Shown: positions 4,773 to 17,948 of the stretch, one piece after another
Layout: every line of letters starts with the position of its first letter
How positions within the stretch are numbered: the first letter of the stretch is position 1
Source of the DNA: Elusimicrobiales bacterium
Lineage (GTDB): Bacteria > Elusimicrobiota > Elusimicrobia > Elusimicrobiales > UBA9959
Direction of reading: 5' to 3'
Length of the DNA stretch: 17,948 nucleotides
NCBI GenBank assembly: GCA_049972095.1
Contig: JBMFKQ010000030.1
Location: forward strand, 1 to 17,948
Program-made: the position numbers and the translations under genes
The notes under the pieces: model-generated
Seen by the model: only the letters and a program-made list of their open reading frames with translations
Database searches by the model: none
What the model was told of the DNA's origin: nothing

Positions 4773-5621
4773 CTACCACCCTTTGATCTTTTCCTCTAAC
4801 TTTTTTCTCATCTTTTTATTAAAAGCATAACCTTCAAAAAAACTCATTCCATTTTTTTTTGCTATATATATAAACCTATCATCTACAGATGAAAGAAGAT
4901 CTATATCCTGGTCAAATTCAAAAAGCTCTTCTTTTTGAAGTATTTTAAGTTCAATTATCTCTTTAAGTACAGAATAACATTTCTTTTCCGAAAGTATCTT
5001 TATGATTTCATTTCTTATCCTTTCTTTTGAAAGAAGCTTTATATATGGGATAGAATCCAAAAGCAGCTCAAATGTCTTTTCTTCTACCTTCCAGCCAAAT
5101 CTTTGGGAAAATCTAATCGCCCTAAAAATCCTTGTTGGATCATCAATGAAGCTTTTTGTATGAAGAACTTTTATAATCCCTTTTTCTATATCGCCGATAC
5201 CGCCAAAAGGATCTGTTATCTCAAAAAGATTACTTTCATTAACTGAGACTGCAATGGCATTAACTGAAAAATCCCTTCTTGAAAGATCATCTTCAATTGA
5301 TGATGCGGCTTCAACAATAGGCAGCGATGCAGGATAAGGATACCTCTCCTTTCTAAATCTTGCCAGATCAACTCTTAGATCTTTAGATATCAATCTTAAG
5401 GTCATAAATTGGGGAAATTCTTCAACCTTCATTGAATATTTTTTCGCTAGCTCTTCAGCAATACTTTTAGGATGTAGTGAGAAGGTTATATCTATATCAA
5501 AGCAGTTTTTGCCAATATACCAATCACGCACACATCCACCGACAAGATATGCTTTGGCAGAATTTTTTATAGCAATTACTGTTTCTATTATATCTGTGTT
5601 ATTGAGAGGTTTTATCTTCAT
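4773..5621 (-). CDS. Class II tRNA nucleotidyltransferase (PolyA_pol family), short, A-adding-like
   Basis: GGCVRD...DIDI catalytic motif A, RKERY loop, DLSRRDFSVNA motif B, DPFGG motif C, SFIDDPTRIFRAIRF motif D, SKERI motif E. Confidence 0.92.
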   Translation of the reverse strand: MKIKPLNNTDIIETVIAIKNSAKAYLVGGCVRDWYIGKNCFDIDITFSLHPKSIAEELAKKYSMKVEEFPQFMTLRLISKDLRVDLARFRKERYPYPASLPIVEAASSIEDDLSRRDFSVNAIAVSVNESNLFEITDPFGGIGDIEKGIIKVLHTKSFIDDPTRIFRAIRFSQRFGWKVEEKTFELLLDSIPYIKLLSKERIRNEIIKILSEKKCYSVLKEIIELKILQKEELFEFDQDIDLLSSVDDRFIYIAKKNGMSFFEGYAFNKKMRKKLEEKIKGW

Positions 5622-6249
5622 CTATGAATTCTATCCCTTCCTCATCTTCCTCAAGAAGATCTACAAGATTTTTCAATCTTATAAGCGCTGGATTTTCTTC
5701 TAAAAGCATCCTAACTGTGTCAATAATATCGTATCTGTGAGGAGTTTTTTTGTAAGGTATTGAAAATGGTATGTTTAGCCTTCTTGCAGCATTTTTATCA
5801 GCAACAACATATTTAATATTCTTTTCCCTACATATCTCCTCTATAACCTCTGTTTCTTCTCCTATATCCTTATCCCTTTCAAGAAGATCTTTAAGCTCAG
5901 CTGTTCCAAAAAGATACCAGGGCTCAAAGTTTAGATCTGTTTTTGAGTTAAGATTCTCCTTGAGTAATTCGTAGTCACTCTCAAGCTTTTCAATAATCTC
6001 TTTTTTCTCCTTCTCATAAGATGGCATAACGAAAACAAGAAGCTGATTTTTTGGATCAAGATATATAAAGTTGTCTTCATAGAAGAAAATCTTTGAACAA
6101 TGAGGGCAGAGAAGAGAGTTGAAATCGCCACGCAGTATCATATCCTTCAGCTCCAGATCAACATCACCTCTTACCACAGTCCAAAACTTTGCCTCAAAAT
6201 CCTCTTTACAGTAAGGACATCTTACATTTCTTATATTCTCTATTGACAT
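5599..6249 (-). CDS. CpXC domain protein (putative zinc-binding)
   Basis: CPYC and CPHC pairs ~36 aa apart followed by FIYLDP, matching the CpXC family pattern; SD-like AAGGGG at 6259-6264; overlaps next gene by 23 bp. Confidence 0.85.
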   Translation of the reverse strand: MSIENIRNVRCPYCKEDFEAKFWTVVRGDVDLELKDMILRGDFNSLLCPHCSKIFFYEDNFIYLDPKNQLLVFVMPSYEKEKKEIIEKLESDYELLKENLNSKTDLNFEPWYLFGTAELKDLLERDKDIGEETEVIEEICREKNIKYVVADKNAARRLNIPFSIPYKKTPHRYDIIDTVRMLLEENPALIRLKNLVDLLEEDEEGIEFIDEDKTSQ

Positions 6250-13235: not shown

Positions 13236-14990
13236 TTATTTCATAAACTCAATAACCCCTTCAAAGATAGCCTGAGCAAATCTATCCTGCCATAAGGGGT
13301 CTAAAAGCATCTCCTCATGCTCAGGCAAAATCATATAGGCATTTTCAACAAGAACTGAAGGCATATTGTGTATTCTTGCAACCATATAATCGCCATATCT
13401 AACTCCCTCATCAGGAAGTGGAATGTTTTTAACAAAACTTTCATGAATCGCATCAGCAAGTTTTTTTGAATGCAGGTGATAATAGTATATCTGAAAGCCC
13501 CTTGGCTTTGAATAGGGATCTTCTCCATCCGCTATTGCGTTGTTATGTATACTGATATAGATATCACCATCAATCCTTTTTGCAATTCTTGGTCTTTCAG
13601 AAAGAGGAATCTGCTCAATAGGATCATTGCTTGTCCTAGTCATATAAACATTTGCTCCATATGAGACAAATTTTTCATAAAGTTTTTTCGCTATTTCAAG
13701 ATTTACAGAATATTCAAAGCTGCCTGAAGGACCAACGGCTCCATCATATGGAGGGGTTGTTTTTGGAGAATGGCCTGGGTCTATAATGATGTTTATACCT
13801 TTAAGAGGTTGAGGGATGAAAAGTGAAGGAATAAATGGTTTGAATTTAAACTCAATATCAAGTGTCCCTTCAGTAGAATAGCTTACATTGTAGCCACACA
13901 GGTTATCATCTTTAAAATTAAATGTAAAAAGTGTTTTATTATCAAGATTTTGCCTAAACATAACAGAGGATATGAAATTGTCTTTTGGATCATAAACAAT
14001 CCAGTTTATATTCGCAGCAGAATTACTAATCTCAAGATAAAGTTTTTTATCATCCTCCCATATAGCAAAAGCTACTTTCATAGATGTAAATATCCTTGCA
14101 AGAACACGGTTCAGTGATGTTTTTATAAGCTTAACACCACTTATCTTGGAGTTTAGTATCCTATGTGAAATTCTTTTTATATCAAGCTTATCCAGATCAG
14201 CATAAAGCTTCATATCTCCAAGAACTGCACGACATCTTTTAGAATCAATCATATCACAAAAAAGATTTATTCCCGGCTCAAGAAAAAGTATATACCCTCC
14301 TGCATCATTTTTAAGAACAACATTATCTGTTGATGTCTCAACCATATAATAACCATCAAAAATCCTTAAGAAATCTTTAAAAATCGCTTTTTCCCCTTTG
14401 AGTTTTCCTTGGGTATATTTAAGAATAATATCATAGTTTTTTGCTTTGATATTTACTGGAATAGAGAAACAGTATTCAAAATTCCCCTTTTTATCATCAT
14501 CTACAACACTATTAACAATCTTGTCAACCTTCACCATAACCGAGGTGTTAGCAAGTCCCTTGAAAGAAATACAGATATCAGATCCTTTTGAAACATAAAC
14601 ATAGCTTGATGATAAAAGCTCAAAAGGAGTTTTATCATCAAAATTTCTTCTGTTGTCTGTAATCACAACATTTCTTCTGTAGATGCTTTCACCAGCATTA
14701 ACCACAAATGAGGGGTCTGATGTTGATATTGAAACATAGGCTATAAAACTTCCATTTTTGTATGGTTTTACAATCTGGCCATTAACAGTAATTGTGGATG
14801 GAATAGGATTAACATTACCAAAAACAAAACTCTTAGAAACACTCCCTATATTTTTACCCTCCCATGGATATACTATGTTAACTGTGTATGTTGAGATAGA
14901 AGTCTCACTTTGACAATAAAGATTTATAATGGAGAAAAAAAAAGAATACAATAAAAGTATTTTAAACGCTGTGAAACATAATCTTAACAT
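13236..14990 (-). CDS. N-acetylmuramoyl-L-alanine amidase (Amidase_3) with signal peptide and ~380 aa beta-rich N-terminal region
   Basis: IIIDPGH, E in FEYSVNL, LSER, YISIHNNA, SVLVENAYM (zinc ligands H/E/H and catalytic Glu intact); hydrophobic N-terminus. Confidence 0.93.
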   Translation of the reverse strand: MLRLCFTAFKILLLYSFFFSIINLYCQSETSISTYTVNIVYPWEGKNIGSVSKSFVFGNVNPIPSTITVNGQIVKPYKNGSFIAYVSISTSDPSFVVNAGESIYRRNVVITDNRRNFDDKTPFELLSSSYVYVSKGSDICISFKGLANTSVMVKVDKIVNSVVDDDKKGNFEYCFSIPVNIKAKNYDIILKYTQGKLKGEKAIFKDFLRIFDGYYMVETSTDNVVLKNDAGGYILFLEPGINLFCDMIDSKRCRAVLGDMKLYADLDKLDIKRISHRILNSKISGVKLIKTSLNRVLARIFTSMKVAFAIWEDDKKLYLEISNSAANINWIVYDPKDNFISSVMFRQNLDNKTLFTFNFKDDNLCGYNVSYSTEGTLDIEFKFKPFIPSLFIPQPLKGINIIIDPGHSPKTTPPYDGAVGPSGSFEYSVNLEIAKKLYEKFVSYGANVYMTRTSNDPIEQIPLSERPRIAKRIDGDIYISIHNNAIADGEDPYSKPRGFQIYYYHLHSKKLADAIHESFVKNIPLPDEGVRYGDYMVARIHNMPSVLVENAYMILPEHEEMLLDPLWQDRFAQAIFEGVIEFMK

Positions 14991-15010: not shown

Positions 15011-16330
15011 ATGAAACTCTGCATGACCTTCTTTTCCATCATTTTAGTTACTTTTGCATCAAATATATCATCCAAGGATTTTTTATTCACCTATCCGGGA
15101 ATGAGAGCAAACTCTGTGGGAAGTGCCTTTTCATCCATAGCTGATGACCCTTATACCATATTTTACAACCCGGCAGGTCTAAACCTCCTCAAAGACTGGC
15201 AGGTTTCATCAACTCTTAATAGAAAGCTTTCTAAAAAAAACCTTGGAGAGTTTTCTTTAGCATATGTAAAGCCATTGCCAGAGATTAACAACGCTATCTT
15301 TGGATTTGGATATGATGGGATAAGACAATCATCAGAAGGGGAAATGGACAACTATATATTCTCCTACTCAAACCAGAAAACATATAAATACCTTCAGATG
15401 CCAGTTCTCTACGGCATAAGCTTAAGAATAACAAGCATAAGATATCCTTACAAATCACATCTTGGTATAGGATTTGATGCCGGAGGGCTTGTAAGATCTA
15501 TCAACGGTTATCGACTATCACTTGTTCTTTCTAAATTTATGTTTGGAATGGGTAAAAAGATAACAACACTTACATCCGGCATATCATATGATTATCATAA
15601 CACAACATTCGCAGCAGAGATAAGAATAACCGCAGACTATGCAGAGATCTTCTATGGTTTTGAGACAAAATTTAATGAGGATTTAATGAGGATAAGGGCA
15701 GGTAAGGGAGTAAATCTTGATGGAAGAGATTTTATAATGCTTGGAGCCGGCTTTAACTTTGATCCTGTGATAATAGATATAGGATTCTCTTATCCATATA
15801 AAGGATTACACCTCAATGCCGGAGATTATGGCTTTACACTTACATATAAATTCACAGGACCAACATATCACGAGCGAATGTATTCACAAGCATCTCAGAA
15901 GGTTAGGGATCTCTCACTCAGATCCAGCTCACTTAAAGAGGAGATAAACATTCTTGAGAAAGAGACAAAAAATCTTCAATCACAAAAAAACAACCTTGAA
16001 ACTGACCTTACAATAATGAACACTAAACTTATTGAGCTTAAAGAGGAGATAAGAAAAAAGGAGAATGAGCTTGCGGATCTTGAATATCTTAAAACAAAAA
16101 AAGCTCAAAAAGAAGAGAAAGAATCAAAGCCAGTTATAAAAGAAGAGAGATGGCCAAAGCTTCACAAGGTTGAGAAGGGAGATACTTTAAGGTCAATATC
16201 ATCAAAATATTACGGCACACCATCTATGTGGAAGCTTATATATGAGGAAAACGAGGATAAGATAATAAGAGGACTTCCAAAAGAGGATGAGATATTGGTA
16301 ATACCTCCTCCTAAAAAGAAATATGAATAA
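15011..16330 (+). CDS. Outer-membrane beta-barrel (PorV/PorP/FadL-like) fused to coiled coil and C-terminal LysM domain
   Basis: Signal peptide; PGMRANSVGSAFSSIADDPYTIFYNPAGL (PorV/FadL-like N-terminal signature); alternating beta-strands ending YGFTLTYKF (~aa 281); heptad region ~aa 290-370; LysM HKVEKGDTLRSISSKYYG...IYEEN...LVIP (~aa 385-432). Confidence 0.82.
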   Translation: MKLCMTFFSIILVTFASNISSKDFLFTYPGMRANSVGSAFSSIADDPYTIFYNPAGLNLLKDWQVSSTLNRKLSKKNLGEFSLAYVKPLPEINNAIFGFGYDGIRQSSEGEMDNYIFSYSNQKTYKYLQMPVLYGISLRITSIRYPYKSHLGIGFDAGGLVRSINGYRLSLVLSKFMFGMGKKITTLTSGISYDYHNTTFAAEIRITADYAEIFYGFETKFNEDLMRIRAGKGVNLDGRDFIMLGAGFNFDPVIIDIGFSYPYKGLHLNAGDYGFTLTYKFTGPTYHERMYSQASQKVRDLSLRSSSLKEEINILEKETKNLQSQKNNLETDLTIMNTKLIELKEEIRKKENELADLEYLKTKKAQKEEKESKPVIKEERWPKLHKVEKGDTLRSISSKYYGTPSMWKLIYEENEDKIIRGLPKEDEILVIPPPKKKYE

Positions 16331-17447
16331 AGACATAATAGTAATTTCAGCAAGAGAGGAGAATATAAAAAAGATGAAGACAATTCTAGATCTGTGCGGA
16401 TATAAAGGATATTTTGCCAGCGATCTCAATGATGTATTCAGTATAACAGAAAAGTTTGTTCCTCTAAGCATAGTCATAGTTGAAGAGGAAGAGGCAAAAA
16501 CAGAGATTTTCTTAAAAGAAATAAAAAGATACATGTCACTAATACCAGTTATTATAATGATGAGCGAAAAAGATCACATAAAAAGGGAGAAATATATCTC
16601 TATTGGCGCAAACATAGTTATAGAGTTTCCATGGAGTGATGTCGATTTTGCAAAAAAGATAGAAATGCTTGAGATAAAAAACATAGAAGTAGAGAATAGA
16701 CAGAAAGAAAGTAAAAAAAGGATAAAAAATCAGGCAATTGTATTATCAATTTTCTTATTCATTTTTGTATTGGCACTAATAATTCCAGTTAAATTTCTAT
16801 CAAAAACCAAAGAGGTAGCAAAAAAGGATTTTTTCTCAATCCCATCAACATCAATCTCTGGGTTTATAAAAAAGGATAACAAACTCTATGTATATGACTG
16901 GGTCATTCAGTCATTTTATGTCTTTGACTATCAGACAAAGGAACTTATAGAAACAAAAAAATTTTTCACCCCGTATATAATAACACTAATAAAAGACACA
17001 ACAGCCAATTTTTTCTTTGCCATTACAGATTCCGGAGAAATAAAAAAATTTCTAAAAGATAACAGATTTACAGAGTTCTCATCTACATTATATCCATATG
17101 CAAAAGATCTCTGCTATGATGGTATGTATGTTTGGATAGCTAACGATGAATATCTCATAAAGGCTTTAAACAATGATCTTTTAACCCCTGTTGAAAGATA
17201 TCCATTAAAGCAGGAGCTTTCAAAAATCCAGCATATAGCCTGTGCCAAAAACAATATTTATTATTATATCAACAATACCTTAATAAAAACAGAAGAAAAA
17301 AGACCTTTTGATAAAATATCAAAGATAAGTCTTCCTTATAGAATACTATTCATCGACTTAATGTCAGATGAAAAGATAGCATACATAAAACAGGATAAAG
17401 AGAAAAGCCAACTTTTTGAAATCGAAATAAGACACTTATTAGATTAG
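16323..17447 (+). CDS. Bitopic membrane protein: degenerate receiver-like domain, one TM, extracytoplasmic beta-rich (propeller-like) domain
   Basis: aa 1-116 follow receiver secondary-structure pattern (IIVIS...GY...PLSIVI...IPVIIM...GANIVIEFP) without the canonical Asp/Lys; KKRIK then TM AIVLSIFLFIFVLALIIPV; LYVYDW and DLCYDGMYVWIA blade-like motifs; overlaps upstream gene by 8 bp. Confidence 0.7.
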   Translation: MNKDIIVISAREENIKKMKTILDLCGYKGYFASDLNDVFSITEKFVPLSIVIVEEEEAKTEIFLKEIKRYMSLIPVIIMMSEKDHIKREKYISIGANIVIEFPWSDVDFAKKIEMLEIKNIEVENRQKESKKRIKNQAIVLSIFLFIFVLALIIPVKFLSKTKEVAKKDFFSIPSTSISGFIKKDNKLYVYDWVIQSFYVFDYQTKELIETKKFFTPYIITLIKDTTANFFFAITDSGEIKKFLKDNRFTEFSSTLYPYAKDLCYDGMYVWIANDEYLIKALNNDLLTPVERYPLKQELSKIQHIACAKNNIYYYINNTLIKTEEKRPFDKISKISLPYRILFIDLMSDEKIAYIKQDKEKSQLFEIEIRHLLD

Positions 17448-17948
17448 GAGTTTTTCTCTCTTTCAAACTTCTCTATTATTTTTTCTTTATCTAATATCTC
17501 TTCGTAAAGTATCTCGATCTTTCTATTCATCTCATCAACCGTTTCAATAAGTGTCGCCTTATCTCTGAGAGCAGTATTAAGAGCCTGTTTTTTATCTTCA
17601 ATCTCTTGTTTAAGGGCATCTATAGTTGTTTGCATATCCGAAATCTTTTGAGTAAGGCTCAGTTTCTCCTCTTCAAGGCTGGCGATCCTTTCCTTAAAGT
17701 TATCTGCGGTCTGAGAAAGTTTTAAAGAAAGATCCTCTATAATCTTCTCCATCTCCTTATTTTTCTCAGATACCTCCTTAATCTGCTTCTCCCTCAAACC
17801 AACCTCACTCCTAAGCTCAGCTATTATAATATCCTTCCTCGAAAGCTCTTCATCCTTAACACTTAACTCACCCTTAACCCTCTCATACTCTTCATTCAAA
17901 CCCTTCATCCCCACCTCAAGCTCCTCTATCCTCCTCTTAAATCCCTCC
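17444..17948 (-). CDS. 3' fragment of a long coiled-coil protein; start lies beyond the right edge
   Basis: Frame remains open upstream of the track's GTG 17914 to the edge (EGFKRRIEELEVGMKGL...); E/K-rich heptads, no Pro; stop overlaps stop of the convergent gene by 4 bp. Confidence 0.85.
   Translation of the reverse strand, partial: EGFKRRIEELEVGMKGLNEEYERVKGELSVKDEELSRKDIIIAELRSEVGLREKQIKEVSEKNKEMEKIIEDLSLKLSQTADNFKERIASLEEEKLSLTQKISDMQTTIDALKQEIEDKKQALNTALRDKATLIETVDEMNRKIEILYEEILDKEKIIEKFEREKNS

Follow-up and report, generated by a model that had tools for sequence, protein, structure and literature searches.

A gene at 15011..16330 on the + strand of a 17,948-nucleotide contig (the window; JBMFKQ010000030.1 of assembly GCA_049972095.1, from an Elusimicrobiales bacterium) encodes a 439-residue protein in which an outer membrane (OM) β-barrel, a coiled coil and a LysM domain form a single chain. 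We conclude that this protein is probably a PorP/SprF-like barrel that brings its own wall anchor, the equivalent in a single chain of the PorP–PorE bridge of Bacteroidota, and that it works with an inner-membrane partner encoded by the gene that follows it. A FadL-fold OM barrel of the PorV/PorQ/PorP (SprF) group would have gained, in Elusimicrobiota, a periplasmic arm in which an 82-residue coiled coil (~12 nm) leads over a short flexible linker to a LysM domain sitting on peptidoglycan glycan strands. One chain would then do the jobs of both PorP (the barrel) and PorE (the wall bridge) of Porphyromonas, with the barrel, and whatever the barrel holds, pinned to the cell wall. To our knowledge, the way in which the OM and its machines are attached to the cell wall in two-membrane bacteria is known for only a few phyla.

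The open reading frame (ORF) starts with ATG, and a 435-aa database record, the representative of its cluster, is 100% identical to it starting at Met5. The hydrophobic N-terminus (aa 1–21; 15011..15073, +) lies before a conserved DF..PG.RA motif, as it does in all 36 aligned homologues, and from its sequence we infer that it is a Sec signal peptide. AlphaFold2, run with an alignment of 36 sequences, gave a model (mean pLDDT, the predicted local distance difference test, 83.8) that places next a hatch segment carrying FYNPAGL (aa 51–57) and a barrel of 14 strands (aa 64–280) that ends in YGFTLTYKF (aa 273–281), the whole of this FadL/PorV/PorP-type unit spanning aa 22–282 (15074..15856, +). 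The barrel is followed by a single heptad-patterned helix of 82 residues (aa 286–367; 15866..16111, +), by a flexible linker rich in K, E and P (aa 368–380; 16112..16150, +) whose surroundings are poorly predicted (pLDDT <50 at aa 364–378), and by a LysM domain of the YgaU/TsaP kind (aa 381–432; 16151..16306, +) with the pattern WP..H.V..GDTLRSI..KYYG....W..IY..N, modelled as a β-α-α-β unit at aa 383–431. The order of these parts is kept in 68 close full-length relatives and in 124 full-length matches (of 225 proteins compared), so the architecture is not a product of chance. A sequence-only reading of this DNA had described the same ORF, with a signal-like N-terminus, an NPAGL-type barrel closing on the YGFTLTYKF strand, a coiled coil and a LysM domain; each of these parts was recovered here, the barrel as a FadL/PorV-type fold in the monomer model at aa 19–282.

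To place the barrel among known folds, the model was aligned with 48,161 Protein Data Bank (PDB) representatives using VIA-align. The closest match was a FadL homologue of Pseudomonas aeruginosa (3dwo; Z 30.4, root-mean-square deviation (rmsd) 2.2 Å, 253 aligned residues), followed by PorV (6h3i_F; Z 30.3, rmsd 2.5 Å, 251 aligned residues) and Escherichia coli FadL (1t16; Z 28.6). The next fold class scored well below FadL and PorV (OmpG, Z 18.1), and the tether porin OmpM1 lower still (8bym, Z 10.5). All barrel matches covered model residues 19–282, with the hatch region aligned from residue 21, and PorV was also the first-ranked Foldseek match of the window model. The protein thus has the 14-stranded FadL-type OM barrel that is a feature of the PorP/SprF family (Z 30 to both FadL and PorV). 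Among family profiles, the NCBIfam model for PorV/PorQ (PorV_fam, NF033709) matched best (E 3.4e-9), and the nearest proteins outside the family are stand-alone barrels of ~311 aa named PorQ or FadL-like. Taken together, these comparisons are best read as placing the barrel in the PorV/PorQ/PorP group of type IX secretion.

The link to PorP/SprF comes from deep lineages. We selected eight deep loci (L107–L114), all of which encode a full-length barrel/coiled-coil/LysM protein (403–494 aa; family profile E 1e-45 to 1e-63). Two of these eight full-length orthologues pass the Pfam PorP_SprF (PF11751) cut-off, with 33.3 and 30.0 bits against 22.3, and hhalign joined the window family profile to one of them with a probability of 99.9% (E 2.4e-34, 403 columns). 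In five of the eight loci, the barrel gene directly follows a gene for a 787–1223-aa Ig/fn3 protein with a C-terminal Pfam CHU_C domain (the sorting domain of type B in type IX secretion), above the cut-off in four of the five. According to excerpts of one article (PMC9143113), PorP-like barrels are 14-stranded FadL-family proteins that hold proteins with a C-terminal domain (CTD) of type B, PorE (a lipoprotein with TPR, propeller and OmpA_C-like parts) bridges PorP to peptidoglycan in Porphyromonas gingivalis, and non-mobile cargo is proposed to be anchored to the wall through PorP–PorE-like pairs; extracts of another (PMC12618676) link type-B cargo genes to PorP/SprF-like genes. A CHU_C gene directly before barrels that pass PorP_SprF is the same arrangement as this published pairing of type-B cargo with a PorP/SprF-like barrel. 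The eight loci also share a gene order: the barrel-LysM gene, a gene for a cytoplasmic coiled-coil HATPase_c protein, and the propeller gene. The HATPase_c proteins of these loci are 316–445 aa long and keep the H-box histidine in one case of eight; most look, from their sequences, like pseudo-kinases.

The arm that follows the barrel shows a constant length and a variable joint. Across the 124 full-length homologues an unbroken a/d heptad pattern of hydrophobic residues runs from ~291 to 357, with mostly I/V at 'a', mostly L at 'd' and an invariant K326 at an 'a' position, a make-up that suggests a parallel dimer. Of these homologues, 84 have a helix segment of precisely 82 aa (range over the set 62–101), and the linker between helix and LysM ranges from 4 to 53 aa. 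Even-stranded barrels put their C-terminus in the periplasm, so the stalk and LysM behind these 14 strands are expected on the side of the cell wall; the modelled helix is read as a periplasmic coiled-coil stalk of ~12 nm. The terminal LysM was below threshold in the window protein alone (17.1 bits against the Pfam PF01476 cut-off of 20.9). Pfam LysM was matched by 23 of the 36 aligned family members (best E 1.3e-8) and, at E 7.4e-11, by the deep orthologue L112. The tip of the window protein is further matched by NCBIfam PRK11198 (E 4.9e-5) and, in the PDB, by the LysM units of LytE and TsaP (TsaP 3jc8, E 0.006). Its identification as LysM is thus weak for the window sequence alone and firm at the level of the family, and by analogy with other LysM domains the tip probably binds peptidoglycan glycan strands non-covalently.

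The gene that follows (16323..17447, +; 374 aa) starts within the barrel gene, overlapping its stop by 8 nt. Its modelled product (pLDDT 88.7) consists of a CheY-like receiver-like domain (1–105), a long helix with a transmembrane segment (106–153) and a five-bladed β-propeller (170–370), the top Foldseek matches of the latter being glutaminyl cyclase propellers. We read it from the model as an inner-membrane protein with the receiver-like domain in the cytoplasm and the propeller in the periplasm. Its linkage to the barrel gene was followed in 85 loci, 77 of them from a species-genome collection and eight chosen because barrel and partner matches lay 1–2.5 kb apart on one contig. The barrel ORF was present in 84 of the 85, and a partner homologue lay downstream on the same strand in 80 of the 81 loci whose flank was 1.3 kb or longer. 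At the acceptor position after strand 3 of the receiver-like domain, 63 of 74 homologues outside the deep loci have Asp and nine, including the window protein, have Glu; the family also does without the usual receiver lysine before a conserved Pro-Trp. Judged by these residues, the domain may be either degenerate or locked-on.

To evaluate contact between the two proteins, we predicted a complex of two stalk-LysM copies with one propeller. The prediction lends the contact weak support: the score was 0.40 against 0.00 for the best control, with at least 55% contact agreement among runs and a partner pLDDT of at least 77. In the benchmark of this score, 116 of 157 solved complexes attained the mark, against 2 of 215 mismatches; with scores ≤ 0.60, only 18 of the 157 solved complexes did so, as did both mismatches. 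We take the contact as likely but unproven, because the near-invariant gene linkage serves as a prior for the pairing.

By the names available, the family is centred on one phylum. A word-indexed search returned the 68 close full-length relatives (404–468 aa), and all seven of the records among them that name an organism say Elusimicrobia, Elusimicrobiota or Elusimicrobiales. In an exhaustive search of 1.84 billion representatives, 1350 proteins passed E ≤ 0.001, of which 24 reached E ≤ 1e-30; many of the hits were full-length (430–500 aa), and full-length matches to the family profile numbered at least 124 of the 225 proteins compared. Nearly all named full-length homologues are from Elusimicrobiota. 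The 77 species-genome loci, 69 titled Elusimicrobia or a subgroup and eight only "bacterium", were sought with a narrower alignment and are biased to closer relatives. Of 20 distant full-length clusters, eight carry any name, one being Candidatus Firestonebacteria, and an Atlas cluster that is commonest in Eiseniibacteriota and has LysM in 99% of its members scored 0.90, which we treat as a lead only.

Within the phylum, we sampled 201 genomes, most of which belong to two families, f2 (59 genomes, 1.2–2.6 Mb) and f12 (63 genomes). The protein was found in 10 of 10 genomes of the host's own family. In contrast to this, no full-length copy was found in either large family of the sample: 58 of the 59 f2 genomes gave weak matches (E 2.7e-6 to 2.3e-11), and f12 gave weak matches or none. 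The matches inspected in four f2 genomes and one f12 genome covered the first third of the barrel only, in ORFs of 327–435 aa, those of f2 being small stand-alone barrels. The partner gene was absent from the same two families (0/59 and 0/63 genomes). The architecture is conserved in Elusimicrobiota and yet is not universal there, and the phylum can do without the barrel-LysM protein.

Several observations weigh against a PorP/SprF-like barrel with its own wall anchor, and they concern family membership, cargo and the secretion system. The window protein had no PF11751 match at E ≤ 1 in a Pfam scan, nor did any of 36 close relatives at E ≤ 0.01; despite the strong PorV fold match, the NF033709 match covered aa 23–109 only and stayed below the curated cut-off (36.7 bits against 90). 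No sorting-domain cargo gene adjoins the window barrel, whose upstream neighbour is a divergent amidase gene, and in 16 of the 73 loci whose flank reached 2 kb or more the upstream gene is neither an amidase nor a sorting-domain gene. Putative cargo does occur elsewhere in the host genome, as five large proteins (1041–2424 aa) that match a type-B-like sorting domain at the C-terminus and are each followed directly by a small PorV/PorP-like barrel of 307–358 aa (L098/L115 on G000:C15, L100/L116 on G000:C11, and pairs on contigs C18, C12 and C7). By sequence, this is a one-cargo-one-barrel rule outside the phyla where type IX secretion has been described, and in itself it speaks for the PorP/SprF-like reading, as does the SprA-like ORF named next; but since all five CTD proteins already have an adjacent barrel of their own, no orphan cargo is evident for the window barrel. 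As for the translocon, a 1750-aa SprA-like ORF of the host (G000:C28:7134-8549, −) matched TIGR04189 at E 1e-23, below the 200-bit cut-off, and 38 of 41 genomes from the class carry SprA/Sov-like ORFs of ~1800 aa, all below the family cut-off. An SprA-like gene was also present in five of five f2 genomes, where the barrel-LysM protein was not found, so the barrel is not needed for whatever that translocon does. Pfam SprA_N had no match in the host genome and GldM (GldM_1st) none in the 41 genomes, in both cases with control genomes equally silent, so that absence is not shown either. A working type IX system in Elusimicrobiota is not shown by these data, and the abstract of one review calls type IX secretion specific to Bacteroidetes (PMC7463736). 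Finally, the complex score of 0.40 lies in the range where the tool errs more often than not unless the pairing is likely beforehand.

The host genome holds a further variant of this layout: a 572-aa paralogue that joins the barrel to TPR repeats (L094, G000:C23:13667-17140), followed by a 319-aa kinase-like HATPase protein (C23:16851-17810). The arrangement is that of the deep-lineage LysM module with TPR in place of LysM.

In the wall-anchored PorP/SprF-like barrel that we favour, the propeller of the presumably co-transcribed inner-membrane protein probably touches the stalk or the LysM arm, and the link's state could be under the control of the partner's receiver-like domain in the cytoplasm. 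The large Ig/fn3 surface protein encoded just before the barrel in deep lineages, which has a type-B sorting domain, would be the barrel's cargo; the window lineage has no cargo gene next to the barrel, and the operon there lies opposite a gene for a cell-wall amidase. A bolder version of this mechanism, in which the propeller grips and releases the stalk-LysM arm under control of the receiver-like domain, would make the two proteins an envelope-spanning switchable anchor, and would mean that a cut-down type IX-like surface-protein system is at work in Elusimicrobiota, beyond the phyla for which that system is described. If this were true, the cytoplasm could turn the wall attachment of the barrel, and of the surface protein that it holds, on and off; we currently regard this version as improbable.

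The sequence-only reading had cast the protein as a candidate tether between OM and peptidoglycan and its stalk of ~80 aa as a possible ruler of ~12 nm between these layers. An abundant barrel would then staple the OM to peptidoglycan in general, with the 82-residue stalk setting the distance in the manner of the Lpp or OmpM stalk. This fits an OM barrel whose rigid arm ends in a wall-binding module, an arm length that is kept while the linker behind it varies, and a host genome (1.44 Mb, 96.5% complete) in which no SLH domain was found, in the window protein or elsewhere, and in which none of the four OmpA-domain genes is a barrel-fused OmpA. These four genes encode two MotB-like proteins, a 526-aa protein and Pal, the latter matching TIGR02802 with 130.3 bits against a cut-off of 125.35 and being followed by a CpoB/YbgF-like gene. 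The presence of Pal next to this gene speaks against a general staple, and the prediction that carriers lack tethers of the lpp/ompA/pal/ompM type fails for Pal. Also unfavourable are the two families in which no full-length copy was seen, the coupling to a signalling-type inner-membrane gene and the kinship with cargo-linked PorP/SprF barrels, neither of the last two being expected of a bulk staple. Any wall-bound barrel ties both layers, so general tethering is possible as a physical effect and is not favoured as the primary role, which we consider unlikely.

A role in wall remodelling or division is raised by the gene upstream. It encodes an exported N-acetylmuramoyl-L-alanine amidase of 584 aa (13236..14990, −; Pfam Amidase_3 E 9.2e-39), which combines a conserved N-terminal region of ~395 aa, of no known Pfam family and seen in 53 ORFs of the loci, with a compact CwlV-like Amidase_3 domain (401–580). 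The barrel-LysM and propeller proteins could place or control this amidase and thereby couple OM invagination to septal splitting, in the way of NlpD–AmiC or FtsEX–EnvC–AmiA/B. A divergent amidase homologue does lie within 1.5 kb upstream in 52 of the 73 loci, the family-less N-terminal region could be a docking part, and coiled coils and LysM are the parts from which EnvC and NlpD are also built. With the two annotated start codons only 20 nt apart in the window, either the promoters reach into coding sequence or Met5 is the start of the barrel gene. Pfam scans, however, found a LytM domain in neither the barrel protein nor the amidase. The amidase domain aligned end to end with CwlV, AmiC2 and LytH in the PDB (173–178 residues) and only in part with the longer AmiA, AmiB and AmiC, and for this reason we infer that it is of the compact type and does without the AmiA/B/C regulatory insertion. 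Moreover, the amidase link is absent in the 21 most divergent loci, where the barrel-partner pair persists. We thus see a remodelling module as quite unlikely. The barrel might instead be a FadL-like uptake channel for hydrophobic compounds that is anchored to the wall, and excerpts of work on OmpM report such a dual role of tether and channel there (PMC10628300). The best fold matches are indeed FadL homologues, including the N-terminal hatch, and FYNPAGL recalls the FadL NPA motif; but the Toluene_X (PF03349) score of 14.5 bits is well under the cut-off of 29.7, the closest relatives by sequence are of the PorV/PorQ/PorP and not the FadL type, and Pfam scans of the window gene context gave no lipid or aromatic catabolism genes. 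An uptake channel is accordingly the explanation to which we attach very little probability.

Pfam scans of 19 proteins covered the products of genes upstream of the barrel in amidase-less lineages and the upstream proteins of three deep loci, the latter 514–525 aa long; the 17 of these 19 that adjoined the barrel-partner pair showed no family or unrelated housekeeping families. On the other side of the operon, the window ends in the C-terminal 167 aa of a long coiled-coil protein (17444-17947, −), which is cut by the contig end and converges on the partner gene with a 4-nt overlap at the stops. Elsewhere, the window carries a membrane protein of 710 aa that combines a TMEM260-like O-mannosyltransferase domain with TPR repeats at its C-terminus (479-2611, −), a CpXC zinc-ribbon protein (5599-6249, −) whose gene overlaps one of the CCA-adding/poly(A) polymerase family (4773-5621, −), and further housekeeping genes (pyrE-like, pyrF and dUTPase).

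If the wall is indeed held by a barrel of the secretion type to which a coiled coil and LysM are fused, this would be a third way to build a link between OM and cell wall, one conserved in a phylum that has been little studied and coupled to an inner-membrane partner that could relay a cytoplasmic signal. Should the pairing be physical, the two proteins would make a simple bridge across the whole envelope, open to rebuilding and testing, and the fixed 82-residue stalk would offer a direct handle on ideas about envelope spacing through changes in its length. The family also adds to the signs that type IX-kind carrier barrels and sorting domains are at work outside Bacteroidota.

Among known systems, the closest parallel is that of PorP/SprF with PorE (PorE–PorP–PG1035 of P. 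gingivalis; SprF–SprB of Flavobacterium johnsoniae). Both share the 14-stranded FadL-family OM barrel and, in deep orthologues only, the position of its gene directly after that for a type-B CHU_C protein. They are also alike in a peptidoglycan bridge for the barrel, which would exist here by our reading, and in a β-propeller, which belongs to PorE there and to the inner-membrane partner here. The wall link differs, being a separate OmpA_C-like lipoprotein in PorP–PorE and a coiled coil and LysM fused to the barrel in our case, and so does the setting of the propeller, which here is carried by an inner-membrane protein with a cytoplasmic receiver-like domain. The window copy further departs from PorP/SprF in having no adjacent cargo gene, in falling under the PF11751 threshold and in its host, an Elusimicrobiota member. 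PorV (6h3i_F, 8gl6_F) resembles the barrel in fold and is its best NCBIfam family, but has no periplasmic extension or wall-binding domain.

The sequence-only reading had compared the protein with OmpM in reversed order. The OmpM/SlpA/Omp-alpha tethers of Terrabacteria likewise unite a barrel, a coiled-coil stalk and a non-covalent wall domain in one chain, and in both the stalk could set envelope spacing. The likeness is one of shape only: OmpM has an N-terminal stalk, an SLH domain for pyruvylated secondary cell-wall polymer and a porin-type trimer, whereas the window protein begins with its barrel, uses LysM, has a monomer-type 14-stranded FadL fold and dimer-like heptads, and shares its genome with Pal. 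Inverse autotransporters (intimin, invasin, YeeJ) are alike in an OM barrel with a peptidoglycan-binding periplasmic LysM; they and the trimeric autotransporters belong to 12-stranded barrel families, the LysM of intimin is N-terminal, and their passenger is in the same chain, whereas here it would be a separate gene product. In Veillonella adhesins, according to extracts of a preprint (10.64898/2026.01.22.700529), periplasmic coiled coils or SLH domains stand at the C-terminus, immediately behind the barrel. TsaP, a LysM-containing protein by which the secretin of type IV pili is fastened to peptidoglycan, has a similar LysM subtype and, as the window protein would, anchors an OM component to the wall, but it is a periplasmic protein without barrel or coiled-coil stalk. 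No paper on a PorP/PorV-type barrel that has a coiled coil and LysM in the same chain came up in our literature searches, in line with the earlier view of this architecture as uncharacterised. A barrel with LysM is already known from inverse autotransporters, and C-terminal periplasmic coiled coils from Veillonella adhesins; what would be new is a PorP/PorV-type barrel that carries both.

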